Under the pieces are notes generated by a model. It had not been told where the DNA came from, did not search any database, and was given only the letters and a program-made list of their open reading frames with translations. From contig NC_058368.1 in the NCBI RefSeq assembly GCF_018350175.1, positions 91,514,001 through 91,578,000 on the forward strand: DNA of 64,000 nucleotides. Reading direction: 5' to 3'. Below, one piece after another: positions 18,953 through 60,859 of this stretch. Every line of letters begins with the position of its first letter. Position 1 is the stretch's first letter. The position numbers and the translations under genes were made by a program. The DNA comes from Felis catus (taxonomy: Eukaryota).

Positions 18953-19849
18953 TTGACGTACTCCTGTGGGCAGAGTCTTGGGCCTTTTTTAAACATACAA
19001 CATTTGCACTAGCATGTTGACAAGCTATTGACAAGGTAGGTATTCTAGTTGAACAAAAGTGCCTAACAAAATATGTGTTAAGTTCCCTAATGTATCAATC
19101 ACTCTGCCCCTGCCCCCTAGCACACTGAATAAAAAGCTTCCTGCACTAGCCCCAAAGGGAGACAGTGCTTTGAGATTTATCCTCCTGTCTGCTTACTTGC
19201 TGGAAGTGGTGAAAACTTTCTCCAACCAAGAGACTTGGGCTGGCCTATTGACTCACGCACTGCAATGGGGCAAAACGTTTGTGACAGGTAATGATACCAC
19301 AGTAATGGATTGTGACAATCAATAATGGGAAACCATCAATTTTCCCAATTTATAGATTCAATCAATCCATTGTCTCAGAATTTTTATTTACAAATTGGCA
19401 TATTATTCATGTGAGTTGATTATAGCCAAAACACTTGAACAAAAATTCATAGGATACTAATTCTATCTTATCAACATTTCATTTCCTGCTATATTAACAC
19501 AGGGGGGTACCCGTGACCCTATTCTTTCCTATAACTGCCTCCATACATACCTGAACCTGCTCTTTCGCTTTTTCCCATAACACTTACCTTCTAAAATGCT
19601 ATATAATTGTATTCATGGTTTACTGTCTGCACCCTCCTGCCCCCCACCCGACCAAAAAACAAAAATGTTATTGAGAGCAATTAACTTTGTTTCGTTCACT
19701 GACATATTTCCAACCACTTCCAGTGGCATTTGGCACATACCAGGAACACAATAACTTTGGTTGAATCAACGAAGGGAAAAAAGGTTTGTTCTCGTGGTTG
19801 TCTACTTGCCTTACTATCATAAGGCACCACTCTCAGCGAACTTCAGTTT

Positions 19850-21050
19850 CCTTCCCCAGGAACCCAGAGCCACGGCCTCGCAGCCCAAGGAGTGTCACCC
19901 CAAGCCCGGAAGTGAGAGCTGGGCACGTGACAAGCTCGCCTGGGCCCCGCCTCACCGACCAGCGCGGAGAACTACACCTCCCAGAATGCATGAGTCCTCG
20001 CGTGGACTACATTCCCCAGAAGCTTTGCGGCCATTGCTAACCCGCCTCCTTCCCCACCTCTCCGGACCTGCGCGGGACTCTGGGTATTTGCTGCCAGAGC
20101 TAACAGCTACGGGGCTGGAAGTCGGTCCAGTATCGCCCGGGGACAAGTCCCCTACCCGGGCTGCTTTCCGCTGGGGCAGCGTCGGAGCCTCCGCCTGCGG
20201 CGCACGGCCGGAGAGGCGCGGTTCCTGGAACCTCCGAGGCAAGGGCGAGGTGAGCGGCCGAGGGTCGGCCGAATGCGGGAGGGAGGGAGGGAGGACCAGG
20301 GCCTCGGGAGGATGCGGCGCCAGGGCGCGGGGCACAGGCCCGGGAGGCGCGAGCGGGGCCTTTGTGGTTGCAGGCGGGACAGGGGCCGGGCACCCCCTAT
20401 GTGCCCGCCCGCCCAGCACCGGCCGTCCCGCGGTCGTGCCCGTGACCGCGGCAGGTCGGGCACTTGTCCCCACTGGCCCAGGCCCCCCTCCCGCTCCCTC
20501 CCAACCGGTTCCCGGCACGCTACCTGCCCGGCTACCGGCTGACGGCTGTCAGCGAACGTGAGGAATTGTGTTTCCGCCCCTCACCGGCGGCACTGCCCTC
20601 TGGACGGCGGGCGCAGAGATGCGTTTTCCGCCAGAAGTGAGTTGTCCGCTTCCCCCCACGGCAGATCCTCGACGGGAACCGAGGTTTTCGGTTTCTGTGC
20701 CTGTTTTCCAGATAGCAGCCATAGGAAAACTGATGTCATCCCATTCCGAAGCAGTTTTCTCCAAAAATCTGAAGATTCCTTGACAGGAGGGGAGTTGGGT
20801 GGGGAAAGTTTGAGGTGGAGAAAAGTTGTCCCGTGCAGGCAGCGAGGTTGGGGCAGGTGTTCTGGAGGCGCGTGGTATAGATCCCGGTGCACCCTCCCTG
20901 GCTGTGTGAACTGGGGCAAGGTGCTCCCGCTCTACCCTCGATTTCCTGATCTGTAGAATGGGGGTGCTGACAATGGCAGCTGTGCTGCGGGACTAAACCA
21001 GTGTTGGCAGTCCCTGGCATGCGGTGAGATTCAGTGAGTCGCTGCGGCTG
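19850..21050 (+). promoter_or_regulatory. CpG-island promoter of ZNF354A
   Basis: Dense CpG/GC. ETS site CCGGAAGTG 19906-19914, E-box CACGTG 19924-19929, GC box ~19944, and two ACTACA-n2-TCCCAG-type (ZNF143/THAP11) motifs at 19971-19990 and 20006-20023. Confidence 0.9.
20030..20249 (+). other. ZNF354A: Probable non-coding exon 1 of ZNF354A (start approximate)
   Basis: Lies just downstream of the promoter motifs, contains no ATG, and ends at a strong donor GAG|GTGAGC at 20249/20250. Confidence 0.6.
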
Positions 21051-25418: not shown

Positions 25419-25595
<177 letters not shown>

Positions 25596-26487: not shown

Positions 26488-26792
26488 TGTTTATAAGTAT
26501 TAGCTTAGTGTGTACATCTAACATATTCCCTCTTCTATGGAAAGCTAATGTTATTAAAGCTGCAGATTTATCATGTTTCCCTAACATACAACTATTGCAC
26601 AGCCATGTCCTACAGGTCCCTTGCCTTTCCCCGCGCTATGCCCTCAACATCGTGGGGGCACAGCTGGAGCACCCCCAGAAGCTCTTTGTAACATACCCTG
26701 AGTTTTCTGCTCAGGTCTATGATGCCTCTTTGAGTCAAAACAAAACCAAGTCTTTTTTGTCTCTCTCTCTCTTTTTGTTTGTGTATGAGCAG

Positions 26793-26888
26793 GACTCCTG
26801 TTTTCCAAACCAAAAGTGATCTCCCTGTTGCAGCAAGGAGACGATCCCTGGAAGGTAGAGAAAGAAAGTCCTGGAGGCCCCTCTCTAG
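26793..26888 (+). CDS. ZNF354A: ZNF354A KRAB-B exon (96 nt)
   Basis: GAGCAG|GA...CTAG|GTGAGT; encodes [31 protein letters not shown]; phase matches neighbouring exons. Confidence 0.96.
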
Positions 26889-41871: not shown

Positions 41872-43424
41872 GGTGGAAGGGCAGTCACAAAACCACGAAG
41901 TCAACTCAAACACAAGATTCTTCCTTCCAAGAGCTGATAATGAGAAGATCCAAAAGGAATGGACCCTGGGACTTTAAATCAGAAAAACCCTGCATTTATG
42001 AATACAGAGTAGAGAAAAGGCAAGAGAAAAAAGAAAGTGTCCCGACAATTTTAGTCACCCACAAAAAAATCCTTGCTGTAGAAAAAAGCCATAAAAATGC
42101 TGAATTTGGCCAAAACTTCAGTCCAAAGTCAGTCCTTGTTAAGCAACAGATGGTCCCCAGAGAAGAAACACCACCAAAATGTGAAATACAAGGAAACCGC
42201 TTCAAACAGAATCCGTATTTACTTAATCAGCCAAAAATCAACACAGCAGAGAAACGCTATAAATGTAGTATATGTGAAAAAACCTTCATTAACACTTCAT
42301 CCCTTCGCAAGCATGAGAAAAACCACAGTGGAGAGAAATTATTTAAATGTAAAGAATGTTCAAAAGCCTTTAACCAAAGTTCAGCTCTCATTCAACATCA
42401 AATAACTCATACTGGAGAGAAGCCCTATGTGTGTAAAGAATGTGGGAAAGCCTTCACTCTTAGCACATCCCTTTATAAACACCTAAGAACCCATACTGTG
42501 GAGAAATCCTATAGATGTAAAGAGTGTGGTAAATCCTTCAGCAGGAGATCTGGCCTTTTTATACATCAAAAAATCCATGCTCGAGAAAATCCCCATAAAT
42601 ATAATCCAGGTAGGAAGGCATCCGGCCTTCCTGGATGTCAGAGAATTCACCTCAGAAAGAAGTCCTATTTATGCAATGAATGTGGCAACACCTTCAAGTC
42701 TAGTTCATCCCTTCGTTATCATCAGAGGATTCACACAGGAGAGAAACCTTTTAAGTGTAGTGAATGCGGGAGAGCCTTCAGTCAGAGCGCATCTCTTATT
42801 CAGCATGAAAGAATTCACACTGGAGAAAAGCCCTATCGATGTAACGAATGTGGAAAAGGTTTTACTTCGATTTCCCGACTGAATAGACACCGAATAATTC
42901 ATACTGGTGAGAAGTTTTATAACTGTAATGAATGTGGTAAAGCCTTAAGTTCCCACTCAACACTGATCATCCATGAAAGAATTCACACTGGAGAGAAACC
43001 GTGTAAATGTAAAGTGTGTGGGAAAGCCTTCAGGCAGAGTTCAGCCCTCATTCAACATCAGAGAATGCACACTGGAGAAAGACCCTATAAATGCAACGAG
43101 TGTGGGAAAACGTTCAGGTGTAACTCATCCCTTAGTAACCACCAGAGAATTCACACAGGAGAGAAACCATATCGATGTGAGGAATGTGGTATATCTTTTG
43201 GCCAAAGTTCAGCTCTTATTCAGCATCGCAGGATTCATACGGGAGAGAAGCCCTTTAAATGTAACACATGTGGGAAAACTTTCAGACAGAGCTCATCACG
43301 GATTGCCCATCAGAGAATTCATACTGGAGAGAAACCCTATGAATGTAACACATGTGGGAAACTCTTCAACCACAGGTCATCCCTTACTAATCATTACAAA
43401 ATCCACATTGAAGAGAACCCCTAG
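41872..43424 (+). CDS. ZNF354A: ZNF354A final exon: linker plus 13 C2H2 zinc fingers (4+9)
   Basis: Acceptor TTCCCCTCCAG|GG at 41871; open to TAG 43424. Spliced CDS is 33+127+96+1553=1809 nt (602 aa). Ends [18 protein letters not shown], like recalled ZNF354A (..HIEEDP). Confidence 0.95.
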
Positions 43425-47637: not shown

Positions 47638-50380
47638 ACTTCCAGTGTCAGCTAGGACATGTAAACAACTTACAATCATCACTTCTAACAAGAAAAAGCT
47701 GCATGAGCAGAAAAATCAAGGACTCCTCTTTCTGAGAACTTAGGTTACTGGCAAATCACAACACTGATCTGGAGAGACACACCTATCCAGAGAGAGACAC
47801 ACCTATCCAGAGAGAGTCACAGCCAAGGTCTGCTTACCTGGAGCTGAAGCTGCTGGAGACACAAACATCTGGGGCCATTTGAGTGAGAGTTTTGGTGAAT
47901 TGCTGGGGGTTGAGTGTGGACCAGCTTGAGAATGAGGAACTTCTATCGGCCACAGTTTTAAGAGGTGCCCCACATCTCCAATGCCATAAGCCCCAGAAAC
48001 CCATTTGGATTTCCATGGTAGTGACCCGAGAAACATCCCCTTAGGGCTCTGGTAGGAGAAGGGTCACCATTGTGAAAAACACCTAGAGTCTTTTCCACCA
48101 AAAAACCTATTCTCCTGGGGAAAAGAGTTTACTCGAGTCTTATGCTAGTGGGATTGGGACATTCCTCCCACTTTAGTGCCCTCTAACCTTTCTGTCTTGC
48201 TAAGGAGAAAATAGACAACAGGAGCCAGGGCTTCAAGGAAACAGATTGGGATGCTGCAACCAGGGGAGGGAGTATAGGGCATGGAGGCAAAAAGTTACAC
48301 CACCAAAGAAACACTCGGGTCACTCCCAGCCCTACACACAGGCCCACTGAAACTGAGACTTTAAAAATGAGATTTAACTGGGGCAACTGCATGACTCAGT
48401 TGAGCATCCAACTTGATCTCAGTTCAGGTCTTGATCTCAAGGTCATGAGTTCAAGCCCTATATAGGACTCCACGCTGGGTGTGAAGCCTACTTAAAAAAA
48501 ATTCTTTTAAAGATTTGAGGCACCTGGGTGACTTAGTGGGTTAAGTGTCCAACACTTCATTTCAGCTCAGGTCATGATCTCAAGAAGCCCCGTGTCAGAC
48601 TCTGCACTGAGCATGGAACCTGCTTAAGATTCCCTTTCTCCCTCTCCCTCTTCCCCTCCCCCACTTTCACTCTCTCGAAAATAAAAATAAAGTCTTTAAA
48701 AAAATAGATTTAATTGGAAGATTGTAGAATCACCCACCCACCCTCAGCTTGCCACCATAGCAACAGGATTTTGGTATAATAACACTAGTAGAGCAGACAG
48801 AGCTCCAAGACAGACGCCTTGAGGAGTGTTCAGGAAAGCCAAATTCAAGAGTAGAGAAAAAAATAAGATACAAGCAGAATGTGAAGCCTCTAGTACCTAT
48901 GGTTGCCCAACTCCTAGCCACATTAACATAAACATATCAGTGGATTAAAAAGGACAATATACCGTGACCAAGTGAGATTTATCCCAGAAGTCAAAAATTT
49001 GTACAACATATGAAAAATATACTAACCTGCAATAGTATAATGAAGGCAAAATAAACACCATTATACAAAATCTTGATGCATAAAAAGCATTTCACAAAAC
49101 CCAACACTCTTTCACGATTCAAAACACTGGCCTAGGAATAGAAGGGAATATCCCTAACATAATAAAGTACATTTATGAAAAACCCACAGCCTGCATCATA
49201 CTCAATAGTGAAACACTGAAAGCTTTCCCCCTAAGATTAGAAATGAGACAAGAGTGCCTGCTGTTGCCACTTCTATTCAATACTGTACTGGAAGTTCTAG
49301 CAAGAACAATTAGAAAGAAAAGAAGTAAAAGGCACCCAAAATTTGCCTTTTAATTTTAGAATTAAAAATCTCTATTTGCAGATGACAGGACTCTGTATGT
49401 AGAAAATCCTAAGTAATTCACACACACACACGAAAATATGTTAGAATTCATAAAGTGAGTTCAGCAATGTTTCAGGATGCAAGATTAATATGCAAAAATT
49501 CATTTTACTTCCATGTGCTGGTAATGAAAAATCTGAAAAGTAAATTAAAGCAATTTAATGTATAATAGCATCAAAAAGGATAAAATGCTTAGGGATAAAG
49601 TTTAACCAAGGAAGCTAAGACTTGTACAAGGAAAACTCTAAAATATTGCTGAAAGAAACTGAAGAAGGCATAAGACCTAAATGGAAAGACATTTGATATT
49701 CCTAGATTGGAGGACATTGTTAAAAATGGCAATAGTTCCTAAATGATCTACAAACCCAATACAATCACTACCAAAATTCCAATGACTTTTTTGCAAGAGT
49801 GGAAGAGCAGAGTCTAAAATTCATATGCAGAGGCGCCTGGATCAGTTAAGCACCTGACTCTTGATTTTGGCTCGGGTCATGATCTCACGGTGCGTGGGAT
49901 CGCACCTCATGTCAGGCTCCACACTAACAGCACAGAGCCTGCTTGGGATTCTCTGTCTCCCTCTCTCTGCTCCTCCCCAACTCATTGTCTATCTCAATAA
50001 ATAAACATTTTAGAAAAGAAAAAAAAGAAAAAAACAAAATTCATATGCAATTGTGTGAGACCCTACATAGTAGAAACAATTTTGAAGAAGAAAAATTTGG
50101 AAGACACACTCCTCAACTGTAAAACTTACTACAAAGCTACAATAATCAAAACAGTATGGTATTGGCATATAAGCACAGAGTAATGGACTCAAATTCAGAG
50201 CCCAGAAATAAACTTACATATCTATGACAATTGATTTTCTGACAAGAGTAAAAAGATCACTGAATGGGAAACAATGGTCTCTTCAAGGAATGGTGCAGAG
50301 ACCATAGGATGTCCACATGCAAAAGGATGAATCTGGACCCCTACCTCACACCACATATAAAAGTTATTAAATATCAAAAT
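47637..50380 (+). mobile_element. Old L1 (5' region ~47640-48900 plus ORF2 fragment ~48920-50380) containing SINEs at 48380-48500, 48517-48695 and 49830-50035
   Basis: 5' region resembles 9120-9300; ORF2 remnants (TTTGCAGATGAC RT motif, NGLFKEWC...KRMNLDPYLTP). Confidence 0.82.
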
Positions 50381-51084: not shown

Positions 51085-51281
51085 CAGTCGTTCTTGACTG
51101 GGGTATTTTGTACCCCAGGAAACATTTAGCAATGTCCAGAGATGTATTTGCTTGTCACAGCTGAGGGGGACCTACTGGAGAGATGTAGGATGCTGGTAAA
51201 CATTCTAACATGGACTAAACAGCCCTCCCCAGCAAAGAGGTGTCTGGCCCAAATATCAGTAGTGCCGAGACTGAGAAAACA
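51085..51281. mobile_element. MER20-like hAT-Charlie element
   Basis: CAGTCGTTCTTGAC...GGCCCAAATATCAGTAGTGCCGAGACTGAGAAA pattern. Confidence 0.78.
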
Positions 51282-52017
51282 GCCCTAAAGGAAGGGGCTT
51301 TACTTAGCAAGCCCAGCCCTGAGCTAGGAATCTGGAGGCAGGCTCTGCCATCTGTCCCCTGTACAGAAAGGCAAACAGCTTCCTGTCTGAGCTGCCCTCT
51401 CCTGGAGACAACCACATCTTCTCTCCTGGCCTCTCTCGCTACTTGCTCCCTACCACATGCACCTGCTACACAGTGGCTCTAAGGGTCTTTGTTCCTGGCC
51501 ATGTCCTGGCCTGTCATGTTAAGACAAGATCAAAGCAGTGATATGGATAGAGGGTCTGTGATAACCTAAGGCATCACCATGTGCCACCTCTATCCCCTCT
51601 GTTTTCCCTTCTCAGTTGCCTGGACCTCCCTCTTCCCAAGTGCCAGCTCTAAGATTGGTGCATCCATGCTCACCCCAGGGGCTGTGATGGGCCCTCCCAC
51701 TGAAGAGCTACACTGAGGACGCTCAGGCCCCAGGATGGGTGCTCTGGACTGAGTCCTCTGTGGTCACCTCCACACTTGTTTCCTGCATCTCTCCAGTCGG
51801 GCCTCTCTTCCCGGCAGCAGTGGTTGAAGCCCAGAACTGCGAACCAGATACAGAGCCATCACACGGTTTTGACTTTGGTCCCCAAGTCCATTTGAAAGAA
51901 AATGAAGATCATGGTTCTAAATAATGACTTGCTCTCCCTTCCACAAATCCAGTAAATACAGTCCTCAAAAAACAAAGTATCAAAACCAAGTAGATGTCCC
52001 TTACACTTGCCAGTGGT

Positions 52018-53008: not shown

Positions 53009-53949
53009 CAAGTTTTTAAAAATTGAGTAAGCATTAAGCCAGATTGTGGTACCCATCACAGACCATCCGCTAACAAGCTCACAGAGACAGAAGGAAACTC
53101 ATCCTTTCATACAGCCAGGCAGTGACATCACAGAGAATCATATATTCCAGATAAACCACAACGAGTCCTCAAGAAGACTTGAGGGCACCATTTGTCACAC
53201 ATAGTTCACCTTAAATTCACCTGGTCATTGGGTTGCTACTTGTTTCCTGGTTGCCTTTACCCAAAGGAAAAATCTAGTATTGTATTGCAAGAGGTAGATT
53301 TGGAACTTAGAGACACTCGCCTGCTGAAGTTGCTTCCTACTTTCCTAGAGAGACTGGGAGTTAGGAGATCCACCTTCCTCCATGATTGCAGTTCACAGAG
53401 ATGACTCACAAGTCCTAGTGAAAGCACTCTTGCTCTTTGGAAAGCTAGCAGGAGGCTTACCAGCTTTTTAAGTTCCCCTCCCGGCCCACAGAGCAGCTCC
53501 GTGGATGACAGGCCTAGGACTCCATGTACCTGGAACTTGATCATTGTTCAGAGGCCTGGAAGGTGATCAAGGCCCCTTCTGAAGACAAATCACATTCCCC
53601 AAAATAGAGAAAGAGCCCTCCCAGTCCAGGAAATGCTTAGTTAAAATCCTCTCGTTCTGGTAGTTTTCAGATTTCAATTATTATTCAATGAATATTATTA
53701 TTCATTATTGAACTTGGATAATATCTAGACCCACAGATGCTTCCCAAAACCTGCCTCGGTACAAGGATCAGACGTTACTTCTGCCAGTGACGCTGGTTCC
53801 TGGCCTTCGCATTTAAGGATTTAGTATCTCCCACCAGCAGACATAAAGGTATCTGGGGGCCCCGTCAGTGCAGGAGAATCCCTGAAAACCACTCAGACGT
53901 ACAGAGTGAATCATGCCAAGGTGCCCCCACATTTCTCTGTCCCTTACAG

Positions 53950-54241
53950 GCCAGTCCTTGGAGAGACCAGGAAATCCGGTTTTCTACAAGAATGGGGAAT
54001 CCTTGGAAGGGAGTTTCCTCTTGAGTCAAGGAAGAAGAACCCCATCCTGACAAAGACGATTCTTTTGTGCTCAAGTCCAGGGCCATAGAGAAGAGCTGGC
54101 GACAATGTTCCCAAATGCTGATGTGTTTGCAGGACTTATACTGGACTACATAGGAGGCCAAGAAATGAACCCCGGCCTGTCCTTGTGGAGAAACCATGCA
54201 ACAGACCCTGGGCCAGAACTGGGAGGAACCAATCTCCTCAG
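53950..54241 (+). pseudogene. MSANTD5: Disabled Myb/SANT-like domain exon, MSANTD5-like pseudogene
   Basis: Acceptor CCCTTACAG| and donor TCAG|GTAGGG. Reconstructed as ASPWRDQEIR/FLQEWGILGREFPLESRKKNPILTKTILLC/KSRAIEKSWRQCSQMLMCLQDLYWTT*EAKK*TPACPCGETMQQTLGQNWEEPISS, with two frameshifts and two stops. Synteny next to ZNF354A is recalled, not checked. Confidence 0.78.
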
Positions 54242-54507
54242 GTAGGGTTCTTCTATGTTCTATTTTGTGGCCCTTAATCACTTAAAGGTACAGACCAACA
54301 TGGGCTGACTTAGTCCATCACACTGTACCCTAGCATAGTAGAGAATTAGGAGACAGGCCTCTACCTTATTTAGAGTGGTCATGGCCCCCGTGGAAGGCAA
54401 GTCCAGAGACAGTCACCCAAGGAGAAGGTCTGGGCCACCAACACTGAAGGGGTCTGTTCCACTTGGCTTTTCCCTGCCTCTGCACACCACCACCTCCCAC
54501 TTCCCAG

Positions 54508-54650
54508 AACCAGCTCCATGCCTAGCCCATCCATGTTCCCCAGAGTCAAGCCCTGCGTTCCCCCACAAGTGAACCATATTGAGGACACCCAAGTACTAGG
54601 ATGGGTTCTGGGAGCCTTGGATCCTGTCTGGTCTATCTCTGTGATCATTT
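54508..54650 (+). pseudogene. Probable last-exon remnant of the MSANTD5-like pseudogene
   Basis: PCVPPQVNHIEDTQVLGW resembles the recalled PMWAPTPVIYVENPQVPGW of human MSANTD5; boundaries uncertain. Confidence 0.45.
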
Positions 54651-56444
54651 CCTGTACTTCTTCTGGCACACCTCAGGTCCCAGCAGGATTGAACCTCTGC
54701 AGACTCTGAACCAGGTCTTGAACTTAGATAATCTGAATGTGATCCCTTTTGCACTTTAGACAGTGGACTACCATGGTTCCAAACACTCTTAACTCCTTCT
54801 CTTGCCAAAACCCAATGTCATGAAATAAAATGGGACATTGAAGATGGTTCTCCTCTCTTTCATCCTTGGGACATTGGCTTGGATGGGACCCAGAAAATAT
54901 AGAGAAAAAAATATAGAGAAAAATAGAGGTCAAGGTGCTGGGTGGGAGCTTAGCTTCTAGGTGCCTGGAATCTGCCATCCCTCCCTCCCTGCTATTTTGT
55001 TCATTCTTAGTGCCCAGAGGCCCAATGACCAACATGAGAAAACCTGTACATTCAGAGAGGATAGACATTCAATCCTGCCTTTAGCAATTTCTAGCATTGT
55101 CTATTCATTGACCAGTACCAGATCTCACCCTACTAAAATTAAGCTGAAGTTTCTTCATAGTCAGACTTGGGGGGAATATTTTCTGTGTAGTATATGTATA
55201 CACATATATGGGGTCACTCAGTCATATTTTTCTCCACATTTCTTAAAAGTGTATGAATTTTCTCCCAGTATAGATCCCAGCTTAGTCTAGTCTTGGTCTT
55301 GAAAAACTGTGTTATTACACACAATTCATCGCTCTCCTATTACTAAGAAGATTAGTCAAAATAATTATGATGTCCTTTGATTAATATTGCATATCATGGG
55401 GAGAATGGAAGCTTTAAGAGAACCCAGATGGGTAACTGGTCACTAAAGGGCATCTGTGAGTAGCCACATTTCTAAAAATAAACATGGGGGAGCAGACCCT
55501 CTGTCTTGTGTGCCAAAGCCTAGGTAAAAGGACTCCTACAGGGCATGAGGGTGTGGGCAATCCACCCATAGACTAGTCAGAGACAGGTGTGGGCACAGAC
55601 ATCCTGTCTTGGAGCCCCCCTCTCCCTCCTGGGGCATCTCATGCACATGGAGGCCTTTGTGCCTGAATCAGATTGGGCCTGGGTTCTAGGTAGTCACCTT
55701 CTAAAGACTCTCCTTCAAGGCACAGAAAAGCAGCAACACCCCCAGGCCCACTAGGGCCCATGTTCCCCTCTTAGCTGACAAAGGGTGTCTTGTAATGTGG
55801 CTGTAGGCTGGATACACCCCAACCCAGGCACCCAGAGGCCTCCAGAGACAATATGCTACCCTCAGATTTCAGGAAGCATCCAAGGAGGCAGGACTGAAGG
55901 TGATGATGCTCTGACCCAGGGTCAGATCTAGAGGACCCAACTGTCAGGGCCATCTGGTCCCCACTCTTCCCTCTGAGACCTGCAAGAGGTGCCAATGACC
56001 ACCAGGGGGAACCAGAGACACCAAAAGGCTAGAGGGTCTATAGTGGGGGAGGCAAGGCTCCTCTAGTGGGAGGGGAGGTGGGGCTCTTCTCACCATAGAG
56101 GTGGTTCCTGTCTGTGTCTGAGCCCTCTGTCCCCAGCCCTAGTCTTCATCTTAGTGACTTGTCAGCCTCCTGTCACACACTTGGGTTAAAATGGCCTCTA
56201 ACATCTCTTTAGTTTATTCTCTGCTCCAGTCTCTTCCTTCATAGTCTCTGAACTCAGAGGAGAGGCTCTTCCTCTGTAAACACTTCTGACTCACCTCAGA
56301 AACTGTCCAGGGCTCACCCAGACACCCACAATTCTGGCCTGTGAAGACCTTCCTCCAGGAAAACCCAATATGTTCATTCACTTCAAATACTTTTGCCTGT
56401 AAGATATAAACACAGTGCCCCCTATTTCTTACATTCAGCTGAAA

Positions 56445-57187
56445 ACCTTCAAATTTACCCAGAAAGTATTTTTATTTGAAGTAATATTTCACTGATAAGC
56501 CTGGTTTACATTGAAATATAGAAACCATTGCCCTTACATTGAGGACTTTTCTCTAAGCTTTGAAGCTGAACAACATGTCCTCTAGAAGACAGACAGCCCT
56601 AAAGACATTTGAAAAACAGATTCTCAAATCCACACACCCCTCCAGAGTCAATCTCAAGGAGAGGTTCTAGGTCAGGCTCTGGTCCTCTGTTCCAAGCTGC
56701 AGGGGTTTTCATCAATCTCTCAAGTTCCCCAAGAAATAAAAAACCAAACCTGGCCATTCGAACCCTCTTCACACTGAGGTTCTCTGCCCTGCCTGTGCAT
56801 CAGAACCACCTGGAACCTTCTGAACTCCTGAGGTCCGGGCCCCACCAGGATCATTACGTGAGAATCTCTGGAGAAAGGACTCTCACCCTGTTGTGAATGC
56901 CTTTCTGGGTAGTTATTTTTTTTTTAATATATATGTGTGTGTACATATATACATATATATGTATGTATACATTTTTTTGAGAGAGAGAGAGAGAGAGCAC
57001 GCGTGTGCACAAGCAGGGGAGGGGCAGAGATAGAGGGAGACAGAGGATCCAAAGCGGCCTCCACACTGACAGCAGAGAGCCTAACACGCGGCTTGAACCC
57101 ATGAACCACAAGATCATGACCTGAGCTGAAAGCTGGATGCCTGAGCCATCCATGCACCCCCACCCTTTTTTTTTATGTTTATTTATT

Positions 57188-57250
<63 letters not shown>

Positions 57251-57640
57251 AGATCTGAAGCGGGCTCTGCGCTGACAATAGAGAGCCCCATGCGGAGCTC
57301 ACAAGCTGTGAGATCATGACCTAAGCTGAAGTCAGCTGCTCAACCCACTGAGTCACCCAGGCGCCCCCTTCTGGGTAGTTCTAATATGCAGCCAAGGTGT
57401 GACTCACTTCCCAAGTTTCCACCTCCCTGGAGCACGGGGAGGTGGGAAAGCGCCTAGGAGGCCCTGCTCTCAGGTGTAGCTCATGGTCAAGTGCACCATG
57501 TTCCTGAGGGAGTAGGGCTACCATCCAGGCTGTATGTTTGAATAAGCTGGACAGCTTCACAAACACAAAGTTGTGGGCTCAGCATGCTTTCCCTGAGCTT
57601 AGAGACTAATGGAAAAGCTAGACTTGACCAAGGACTTTGA
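56445..57640 (+). repeat. Copy A of an old local direct duplication (contains a MER5-like element and two SINEs)
   Basis: Several collinear blocks shared with 60131-60840 (see findings). Confidence 0.8.
56915..57368 (-). mobile_element. Two Can-SINEs sharing one outer TSD
   Basis: TSD TTCTGGGTAGTT at 56903-56914 and 57369-57380; bodies 56915-57160 and 57165-57368, with (GA)n at 57190-57245. Confidence 0.9.
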
Positions 57641-59619
57641 TAAGCCATGCTAGTTTTCTAGCTTGAGGCAGGACCTAGAAGCAGTCCTAGACCACTTCTG
57701 ACTCAGATACTGAACCTTACATTTAACCTGGTGCCCAGGTCCATTTGAGAGAGGAGGGAGGTCAGGACTCCTCCTCTTCCTGAAGCCCAATGGAATTTAA
57801 GTAAAATGTGAAATTATCTGGAGGATCCTCTACCTTGGCCACATGACCAGGTCTTGAGAGACCCAAAAAAAGCAGGAAGAGCCAAGGAGCAGGGAGGGAG
57901 CTCAGCTTCTGGAGGTCTTGGGATCTGTAAACTCTCAGGTTAAAAAAAATTTTTTTTCCAGGAATCAGGGGTGTGCATTTTTGAAGAAGAGTCAACTTAG
58001 TTTGCAGTTGAGGGTCTAAGGCCCAGAATCCTTTATAACCACTGCCAGGCACAATATCGAGGCCAGGCACAATATCTCCCAGGTATCCAAGGAGATGCTA
58101 GTTTAGGTGCAAAGGGATTTATGGCAGGTGTTATCAATGTCCTAGTCTTTCAGTGAGTCACAAGGGCTGAACTCTGGATGAGCCTGCCTCAATCGCAGGC
58201 AAGACTTAAGTCCCCTCCCCTCCCCTCCCTTCTCAATGGAGAACACCAGGATTCCCAGAGAATGCAGGATGCACCCAAGATCACAGAGCCAGTGGGAATG
58301 CTGGGGCTCCGTACTTCCATGGAAAACCAGGGCTTCCCAGTGTGGGTGGAGGCAAGTTCTGCCCAAGGGCCTCTGGGTCCCCTCCACCACCATGGCAACA
58401 ACCCCTCTGCCTTCCACTCTCCCCTTATTCCCTCCTCCATCCACTGCTCTTCTCGTGGTTTGGGTAATAGAGTCGAACTCTCTCTCTGCACGCCTCCCTT
58501 CTCTCTGCTCTTGACTTGTGTTTCCTGACACCTTGATGTTCTGCCTAATGGTTACTAATACCCTTCCATGACCCACTGTTAGCTTCAGATACAGCCCTTC
58601 TCATTCCAGCCTAGAGCTCGGCAGACACACCGGCTGGATCCCACACCCACCCATGGTTTCTGGCTTTTTCTCTCCAACATCTTTGTTGACAACCGTTTCC
58701 ACCCAGGCAAACAGCTATCACTACTTATCTGTTGAAACCCCACTTTTACCCACATCCCTCTATTCCTTCCAGATTCCCTAGAACTCCCAAATTTGGGCTG
58801 TGAGAGTTTTTCTAAATTGCATTTCATGTTGGTATTGACAAAAAAATTTAACTGGTGATTTTCTATCAGCTTGCAAGCCCCCCTCCCCCCGCCTTTCCTT
58901 AAAGATAGAAAAATCACCTCTAGATCATAATGAGATGCACTTCCTTTTACAAGACTCCTGTTGACCTTTAAGGGGAAAAGTCAGGGGTCAGGGTGGGAAT
59001 CTTTGCCCTGTGTTTAGGGGGAGGCCCCGCAGAGAATCCCGGACTGTTAATGGAAAGTGTTAATGGAAACCAAGCTTCTCCTGGTTTTCTCGATTTTGTA
59101 GGTCCTAGTGGTTAAAGGAGTGACTTCAAGGTCAGCCTGGTCCATTGTGCCCTGAGCTGAGCAGAGAATTCTGAGCCAGGCCAGCCCATATGTTCCCTCC
59201 GCACAGCAGAAAGAGTCCTTATCTTTCTGGCATAGCCCCTGCTTCTCCCTCCGTTTGCTCCTCAGTAACTGGTGGACCCAAAAGTGGATTTGAGGGACAC
59301 TGTCCTGGCCTCAAAGTCGACATGGCGTCTCCATTAAGGCAGTTTTCTCAGAGACATGGTGCCCTCCTGAAATCTGTTCTCTATCGTCTCTCTCTGCTCG
59401 CTCCCTCTCCCCTCCTCCCAACTATTCTCAGCCTGGAAAGCCTTGGTTCCCCACCCAGTCGGTATTGCAACATGTGTTTGTCCCTGTGATCAACACACCT
59501 CTGGTTTCCCTCTTACCTACTTCAGCTTCTCAGGATACCTTTAGGTAGGAATTGCCATAAATTCTCTCCCATGTTTTTCTTATTTGCCCAAGTTCCCTTA
59601 TCTCCTGATTTTTTTTCCA

Positions 59620-60021: not shown

Positions 60022-60130
60022 GTGAGGTGTCCTATGACACAGAAACACCATCTCCTTACACTCGCCTCACTTTCTTAGCTTAACTACCTTATCTTCCCAT
60101 ATTCTGTCCCAACAAGAAGGTGGCCTGCTT

Positions 60131-60840
60131 GCTTCAAGAATTCACCCTAAAAACATCATTTTTTTAAACGGTGAAATCTGGAAAGTTTCCCCTAAATTAG
60201 AAGATTTTCCCCCAAAGGCTTAGAACTCAGTATCTAAGTCCTGAGTTTCCACATTCGTAGGAAGACAAGCAGTCCTAAAAGGGGCGACATAATTTCCTTG
60301 AAATCCACATGCCCCTCTGGAATAAGTCTCAAGTCTCAGGAAGGCTTTCCTAGATCAAGCCCGAGTCTTCTGCCCCAAAGAGGTTCTGAGAGCGTCCATC
60401 CCTTCCTCCAAGAAAAAGCAAGAGCTCCGACTCTTTAAAGAGGAGCTTCTCTGCCCGGATTGTGCATTAAAACCACCTGAAAACTTACAGAAGTCTCTGC
60501 CCCGCTGGAGAACCCGGATGTGGGGAAAACCCACAGACGCCCTGCTCTCAGGTGCAGCTCATGGCCGAGTGCGCCATGTTCCTCCAGGGGGCAGCATATC
60601 TCAGCCCAGGTGGCGCCAAGACAATCTCCCAGACAGCTCTCCACAAACGCCGCGCCCGGACTCAGCCCAGGATGATTAAACTCTAACCACAGAGATTGAC
60701 CTTTGAAATGCCTTCCAGCTGATTCCACTGCAGAATCCAGTCTGGGAAGCTGTTTTGCAGCTGAATTCACTTGCAGGCACGATCCACGATTTTGCTGAGT
60801 TTATAGATTAGCGGCGGAGCTAGACTTGACCAGGAAGTTG
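60131..60840 (+). repeat. Copy B of the old local direct duplication
   Basis: Collinear with 56445-57640 and richer in CpG. Confidence 0.8.
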
Positions 60841-60859
60841 CATTAGACTGCACAGAGTT

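Follow-up and report, generated by a model that had tools for sequence, protein, structure and literature searches.

A disabled MSANTD5 Myb/SANT exon among degenerate duplicates behind a ZNF354-type gene in the cat, likely dead long before living cats diverged

The window analysed here is a stretch of 64,000 nucleotides of the cat genome (Felis catus, contig NC_058368.1, positions 91,514,001 to 91,578,000), numbered from its first letter. Its left part holds a ZNF354-type gene, of which two KRAB exons and an intact last exon were recognized (Table 1). The nearest Atlas cluster to the last exon is 'Zinc finger protein 354B isoform X1' (0.99); human gene order would make the gene ZNF354A rather than ZNF354B. 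A CpG island at 19750-21000 is probably its promoter. According to the preliminary description, MSANTD5 lies between ZNF354A and CLK4 with the same orientation. The ZNF354-type side of this arrangement is present: the KRAB gene ends at 43424 on the plus strand, about 10 kb upstream of the disabled exon. An L1 fragment lies at about 49075-50350. The pocket-gopher model KAM4826590.1 continues from the matching KRAB exons into an MSANTD5 exon, and because the same KRAB exons are joined there to this gene, the model supports a conserved adjacency of the two. Three Thomomys bottae models (KAM4826589-91.1; P0009, P0047, and P0048) have ZNF354-type KRAB exons spliced to the MSANTD5 Myb exon; this KRAB-Myb/SANT fusion may be a real read-through or an annotation artefact.

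Table 1. Features of the window, with strand and the evidence for each
Feature	Position	Strand	Evidence
KRAB-A exon, ZNF354-type gene	25443..25574	+	82% over 44 aa to pocket-gopher KAM4826590.1 KRAB box
KRAB-B exon (matched part), ZNF354-type gene	26792..26866	+	72% over 25 aa to KAM4826590.1
Intact last exon, ZNF354-type gene	41872..43424	+	ORF; Pfam zf-C2H2 x13
Unit A: intron remnant, orphan MSANTD5 last exon, 3' flank	51310..51953	+	nhmmer and protein score
Unit B intron end upstream of Myb exon	53855..53949	+	match to unspliced read-through of pig-like P0008
Unit B disabled MSANTD5 Myb/SANT exon	53950..54241	+	292 nt; homology and lesion maps
Unit B short intron	54242..54482	+	GT donor kept; TG at the acceptor position, against AG in unit A
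Unit B disabled proline-rich last exon	54483..54700	+	protein score, lesion maps, profile matches
Candidate poly(A) signal AATAAA, unit B	54824..54829	+	hexamer match
Old direct duplication, first copy, interrupted by SINEs	56505..57646	+	E 1.3e-17, 9e-13, 7e-5 to 60165-60848
Unit C remnant: copy of unit B 3' flank	57652..57936	+	nhmmer E 3.3e-12 to 54659-54983; K2P 0.50
Unit D: heavily decayed Myb exon and following intron	58773..59360	+	AG at 58771-58772; DNA similarity
Old direct duplication, second copy	60165..60848	+	K2P 0.34-0.38 to first copy

The Myb/SANT exon of unit B occupies 292 nt between an acceptor AG at 53948-53949 and a donor GT at 54242-54243, so that the splice-bounded exon first described from the letters is indeed there, as is the Myb/SANT-like peptide pattern quoted with it, whose pieces are spread over the three frames. 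Introns are retained on both sides of the exon, unlike in a processed (retro) pseudogene. In a frameshift-aware alignment with eight intact homologues, the exon reached a mean score of 184, against a maximum of 40.6 for 150 random 400-nt segments. The 57-aa 3' piece, in which stops were replaced by X, retrieved 12 proteins at E 1e-7 to 9e-5 in a full HMMER search among 1.84 billion proteins. All of them carry the MSANTD5 Myb exon, and those with a gene name, tamandua and slow loris included, are called MSANTD5. Further profile and word-based searches (24 and 37 matches), one of them seeded with pieces of the window itself, brought in human, rhinoceros, pig, cattle, cetaceans, hippo, dugong, squirrel, and more primates. 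Over the Myb exon, the window copy has an identity of 53% with the human and 56% with the rhinoceros protein, which share 70% with each other, and the range over human MSANTD5 and its annotated orthologues is 44-56%. The identification as a disabled MSANTD5 homologue is thus borne out by named matches.

The three Myb pieces, read separately, matched no relevant Pfam family, and a word-based protein search with the 57-aa piece alone returned no candidate. With the exon bridged by X, a family-specific profile matched at E 1e-32. Pfam Myb_DNA-bind_4 (PF13837) is matched by all 12 intact homologues, but by only one of them above the curated cut-off. The nearest named Atlas neighbour outside the MSANTD5 family is a ZSCAN20-type cluster (0.88), which serves as a lead only. 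A profile search of the PDB gave no match for the MSANTD5 domain at E <= 1. An exact 19-mer scan for homologue DNA hit 28 loci, none of which extends beyond 21 nt or encodes a relative, and a metagenome scan with a 15-protein alignment yielded 183 pattern matches, none confirmed; neither scan gave DNA of a homologue or of another carnivore.

Five frameshifting deletions were mapped in the Myb exon: about 8 nt near 53956, 2 nt at 53980, 1 nt at 54068, 11 nt at 54148-54160, and 1 nt at 54173. The second and third correspond to the frameshifts near 53980 and 54070 reported earlier, now resolved by the frameshift-aware lesion map. The last two were chosen by three of four guide proteins. The 8-nt deletion comes from the codon count, and both it and the splice phases were derived from proteins rather than from homologue DNA. 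The ends of the intact exon were set by comparing spliced models with unspliced read-through proteins, and reach from within the codon six before the Trp to within the codon after the terminal 'S'. So defined, the exon measures 315 nt in four of the seven proteins compared; the human exon has 312 nt and those of rhinoceros and dolphin have 306 nt. The length of 315 nt is the fitting reference because the window copy aligns ungapped with colugo in the variable stretch; the deletions total 23 nt, and 315 minus 23 gives exactly the 292 nt of the exon. The family peptide E-A-N-x-R-P-R can be encoded with one 8-mer occurring twice, and the window has that 8-mer once. This suggests, as judged from the protein, that one of the deletions arose by slippage between two copies of the 8-mer.

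Two stop codons had been explained in the preliminary description as C>T changes, and neither explanation found support. TGA 54166 is probably out of frame, formed across the N and E codons where an R-N-E-P reading runs in the +1 frame between the 11-nt and 1-nt deletions. R-N-E-P matches the family motif R-S-E-P and itself occurs in 2 of 29 rows; the reading scores 99.4 against 95.5 bits before the frameshift cost, a modest margin. A frame artefact is accordingly the favoured, but not proven, account of this codon. For TAG 54151, a Gln origin is not borne out, as all 10 named laurasiatherian rows have His at that column, and the TAG may be either a real stop or part of the 11-nt deletion. The reading frame is broken in all three entry phases, by stops at 54022, 54048, and 54086, of which 54048 is the first in the native phase. 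The window copy keeps 23 of 31 conserved columns, against 30-33 of 33 in intact rows; put the other way, 8 of 31 are changed in unit B and 0-3 of 33 in 29 intact rows, as under relaxed constraint.

Assembly error or chance resemblance might account for such a broken exon, and the blank Pfam result on separate pieces and the blank first word-based search would agree with it. The alignment score of 184 lies far beyond the null maximum of 40.6, the homologues are named ones, and the 207 31-mers sampled from 53100-55100 reached a share of 1.00 in 14 runs, so that this explanation can be regarded as practically negligible. The runs stem from eight samples and five studies of one organism, and one sample may be the assembly source. 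The words were sampled at a density of about one per 10 bases, at which every lesion is expected to fall within a word. Because every sampled word recurs in 14 runs of five studies, the lesions are fixed in the species and are not assembly errors, as judged indirectly from the presence of words. The RNA-labelled runs X15-X20 (shares 0.07-1.00) were not taken as a sign of expression; X15-X19 are large contig sets that resemble host DNA.

Beyond the Myb exon, unit B keeps the family order of a Myb exon followed by a proline-rich last exon. The last exon scores 57.6 against a null maximum of 36.2 (reached by none of 150 nulls) and carries two to three frameshifts and a stop, the number varying with the guide protein. 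Its acceptor, at 54481-54482, is destroyed, with TG in place of the AG of unit A in the alignment of both units. Upstream of the Myb exon, the stretch 53855-53949 matches the upstream read-through of P0008 with a score of 42 (null maximum 33 of 100). An apparent N-terminal match at 53866-53949 was dropped, as that stretch matches the upstream intron read-through of P0008. Four other intron read-through tests fell within or at the edge of the null. A profile search for the N-terminal exon did not find it, the best score being 3.5 bits. Downstream, a short inverted similarity at 54891-55008 (E 0.006) surrounds an AT-rich repeat. The 8-nt deletion near 53956, the lost last-exon acceptor, and the duplicate units on both sides were all absent from the earlier reading.

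The locus had been proposed as a single-copy, 'unitary' pseudogene. This part of the proposal is not supported, as at least two further degenerate units flank unit B, one of them highly significant and the others fragmentary, none of them intact. Unit A matches 54394-54816 at E 3.6e-18 (nhmmer), with 64% identity and a K2P of 0.50. Its orphan last exon, at about 51616-51830, retains the AG at 51614-51615 and contains at least two frameshifts and a stop. It scores 82.6 as protein (null maximum 36.2, 0 of 150) and so outscores the last exon of unit B itself, yet it is broken as well. A Myb exon was not detectable in unit A, the upstream Myb scores of 25-26 equalling the null. Where its intron and Myb exon would be, at 51085-51290, there is a sequence that resembles a MER20-type DNA transposon. 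Upstream of the unit C remnant, there was no protein-level signal. Unit D matches unit B 54156-54361 at E about 2e-5 and unit A 51310-51512 at 2.9e-5, and its protein score of 38, reached by 2 of 150 nulls, is marginal.

All units lie on the plus strand and none is intact. No intact MSANTD5 copy was found within the 64-kb window, in keeping with the expected absence of an intact syntenic copy. The duplicate pairs are 63-64% identical, with K2P values of about 0.50 that are rough at such distances. Since the flanking units are duplicates of about 64% identity and all dead, the locus is a decayed tandem array of dead MSANTD5 units. The direct duplication 56505-57646/60165-60848 is younger than the other pairs (K2P 0.34-0.38), and a profile of units A, B, and D has no match in it. 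The regions 56400-57650 and 60030-60850 were rejected as further gene units, with one weak link (E 0.013) and no profile support. Intron read-through peptides were likewise abandoned as a means of picking the human-orthologous unit, their downstream scores of 29-39 falling within the null.

The remains might have taken on a new role as regulatory DNA or non-coding exons, such as read-through exons of a ZNF354-type transcript, which would account for the surviving AG/GT of the Myb exon. Both splice sites of the Myb exon and the poly(A) hexamer survive, and the gopher model splices KRAB exons to an MSANTD5 exon. At 0.125 changes per site, however, four given bases would survive by chance in about 60% of cases, the following acceptor has been lost, and the gopher model may be an annotation artefact; co-option thus appears very unlikely, and the locus is most likely functionless now.

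Unit B is the probable counterpart of the working MSANTD5 gene of other mammals. One-to-one orthology is unproven, since the window copy lacks a gap shared by certain other rows and its place in the tree is unsupported. The gap, of three codons, is common to rhinoceros and all cetartiodactyl rows (P0079, P0053, P0058, P0117, and P0134); the window (53996-54030), colugo, lemurs, and tamandua are without it, and it is a possible ungulate marker or a possible sign of paralogy. In the tree, the window copy forms a long end branch (0.7 against a median of 0.16), belongs to no starred group, and does not fall with laurasiatherians. Its position beside xenarthran-like rows was dismissed as an unsupported long-branch placement.

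The dead units could be duplicates of a living sibling elsewhere in the genome, an explanation that would fit the local anatomy and dispute gene loss alone. Two MSANTD5 models on different scaffolds each are found in common dolphin, orca, pygmy sperm whale, Rice's whale, and hippo, and the family is described as expanded in mouse (10.1101/2025.08.21.671216). Protein searches returned no carnivore-named MSANTD5 among the 12, 24, and 37 matches or the members (at most 15 each) listed for 30 expanded clusters, and none of the six unlabelled rows in the tree groups with the window copy. The same searches returned no named horse, bat, or mouse row either, so they were incomplete. On this evidence a duplicated pseudogene with a living sibling seems unlikely, and the presence of an intact MSANTD5 elsewhere in the cat genome is improbable to the same degree. 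The two-model whale and hippo clusters are P0053, P0055, P0058, P0066, and P0124. The MSANTD5 models of sperm whale and white-beaked dolphin include a fused UPAR/Ly6 domain, which a neighbour at a new site probably contributes by read-through. P0128 (322 aa) shows, by eye, two tandem MSANTD5-type Myb/SANT repeats.

The age of the loss was estimated from the 8 of 31 changed columns of unit B, which correspond under neutral decay to 0.125 changes per site (95% 0.05-0.25). The cat mutation rate has been given as 0.86e-8 per generation of 3.8 years (10.1101/2021.04.06.438608), and at that rate the decay would take about 55 My (22-110). Behind this date stand 31 columns and a simple substitution model, together with the present-day cat mutation rate and, among carnivores, the cat copy only. 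Living cats go back about 10 My, and the feliform-caniform split is placed at 45-60 My (PMC4084570). Because about 55 My (22-110) exceeds about 10 My, the loss probably predates living cats. It may predate the cat-dog split as well and be Carnivora-wide. At the same rate, again with a simple model and a modern rate, the duplications would be roughly 100 My old.

A recent date for the lineage-specific loss pictured in the preliminary description is hard to reconcile with these values, as the decay of unit B points to 22-110 My rather than to a recent, felid-specific event. In the strict form of such a loss, the common ancestor of cat and dog still had an intact, single-copy MSANTD5, which then died in Felidae or late Feliformia, and the similarities in the flanks are irrelevant old debris. 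A strong Myb exon in unit B only, the absence of an intact copy from the window, and a lower date bound of 22 My, which allows a feliform-only loss, are compatible with it. Living cats, at about 10 My, are too young for five frameshifts within the 292-nt exon and changes at 8 of 31 conserved residues, no carnivore-named protein, dog and bear included, is among the protein matches listed, and unit A is a highly significant second copy. We therefore hold this strict scenario to be quite improbable, a little more so than a surviving sibling.

Most probably, the locus is a disabled MSANTD5 Myb/SANT exon with frameshifting deletions, set among degenerate direct duplicates behind a ZNF354-type gene, and had been dead for tens of millions of years when living cats diverged. 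The homology, the breaks in both recognisable exons, and the loss of the second acceptor were observed, as were at least one other significant copy and the absence of an intact one from the window. The array would go back to tandem duplication by unequal crossing-over, before the placental radiation or early in its course, as the pairs stand at a K2P of about 0.5. Units A, C, and D might then have decayed or been truncated first, although a simple order in which unit A died first is at odds with its last exon scoring higher than that of unit B (82.6 against 57.6). Unit B, with the best-preserved Myb exon, would have come free of constraint some 55 My ago (22-110) and acquired small deletions from then on, of which one probably goes back to slippage between the two 8-mer copies. 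A transcript entering in the native phase would meet the stop at 54048 and probably undergo nonsense-mediated decay, with no protein predicted.

A broader possibility, which we regard as tentative and somewhat doubtful although less so than any of the rivals above, is that MSANTD5 was lost in the stem lineage of all Carnivora from a tandem array of placental age, with different orders keeping different units. If this were true, cats, dogs, bears, and seals would entirely lack a Dux-linked early-embryo DNA-binding family that has multiplied in mice and whales. Carnivora would then be a natural knockout for the role of the family in zygotic genome activation, a dated one for a family that is expanded and expressed at the 2-cell stage in mouse, and the shared deletions could be used as phylogenetic markers. 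The relic units also suggest that the mammalian locus was once multi-copy, which bears on orthologue calls among the mouse and whale copies. Gene loss by deletions and the birth-and-death of tandem copies are well known, and the locus is in this respect an ordinary old gene fossil. Its value lies in the record, as MSANTD5 is rarely named in the literature and the passages found do not deal with carnivores. A search of the literature on MSANTD5 and its aliases, carnivore gene loss, and ZNF354A with CLK4 found no description of the locus; gene-loss tables such as those of TOGA may list it.

MSANTD5, a mammalian gene for a predicted DNA-binding protein, is little studied and has no established function. 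The Msantd5 family is reported to be restricted to some placentals and to have expanded in mice, where its members are multi-copy genes expressed at the 2-cell stage (10.1101/2025.08.21.671216). One source (10.1101/431890) cites mouse Gm428 as directly targeted by Dux, and Msantd5l is said to have no clear functional role (PMC13672789). Because mouse family members are 2-cell-stage, Dux-target genes, the protein lost here was probably, by analogy, a trihelix DNA- or chromatin-binding factor with a proline-rich tail, active in the early embryo or germ line. The preliminary description had also related MSANTD-type domains to Harbinger transposons. This origin is published for MSANTD1-4 and NAIF1, which date to early jawed vertebrates or sarcopterygians, and so far the statement stands; it is not extended there to MSANTD5, which is absent from the main text of that source (PMC9392472).

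Compared with known systems, the nearest is human MSANTD5 (NP_001382365.1, UniProt A0A3B3IT52), whose Myb/SANT-like exon precedes, as in the window copy, a proline-rich last exon that carries the motif ED/NPQxPxW. The orthologues of rhinoceros (XP_058407894.1), cattle (XP_059744897.1), pig, cetaceans, tamandua, and dugong have the same inferred exon ends. In contrast to all of these, the window has both exons frameshifted, the second acceptor lost, degenerate duplicates, and no recognisable N-terminal exon. The mouse Msantd5 family (Gm428, Gm11487, and Gm11756; Msantd5l/BC049762), linked by its family name in the literature, belongs to the same named family and is likewise prone to duplication; its copies are reported as expressed at the 2-cell stage, unlike the dead copies of the window. 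MSANTD1-4 and NAIF1 share the trihelix Myb/SANT-like class of MSANTD5, in which Myb_DNA-bind_4 is matched by intact homologues. Fixed inactivating lesions at an ancestral locus in a carnivore lineage are also reported for UGT1A6 in cats (PMC3065456) and for PCSK9 (PMC7929951). Those losses concern genes with known functions and phenotypes, whereas MSANTD5 has none and its locus in the window is a relic of several units.
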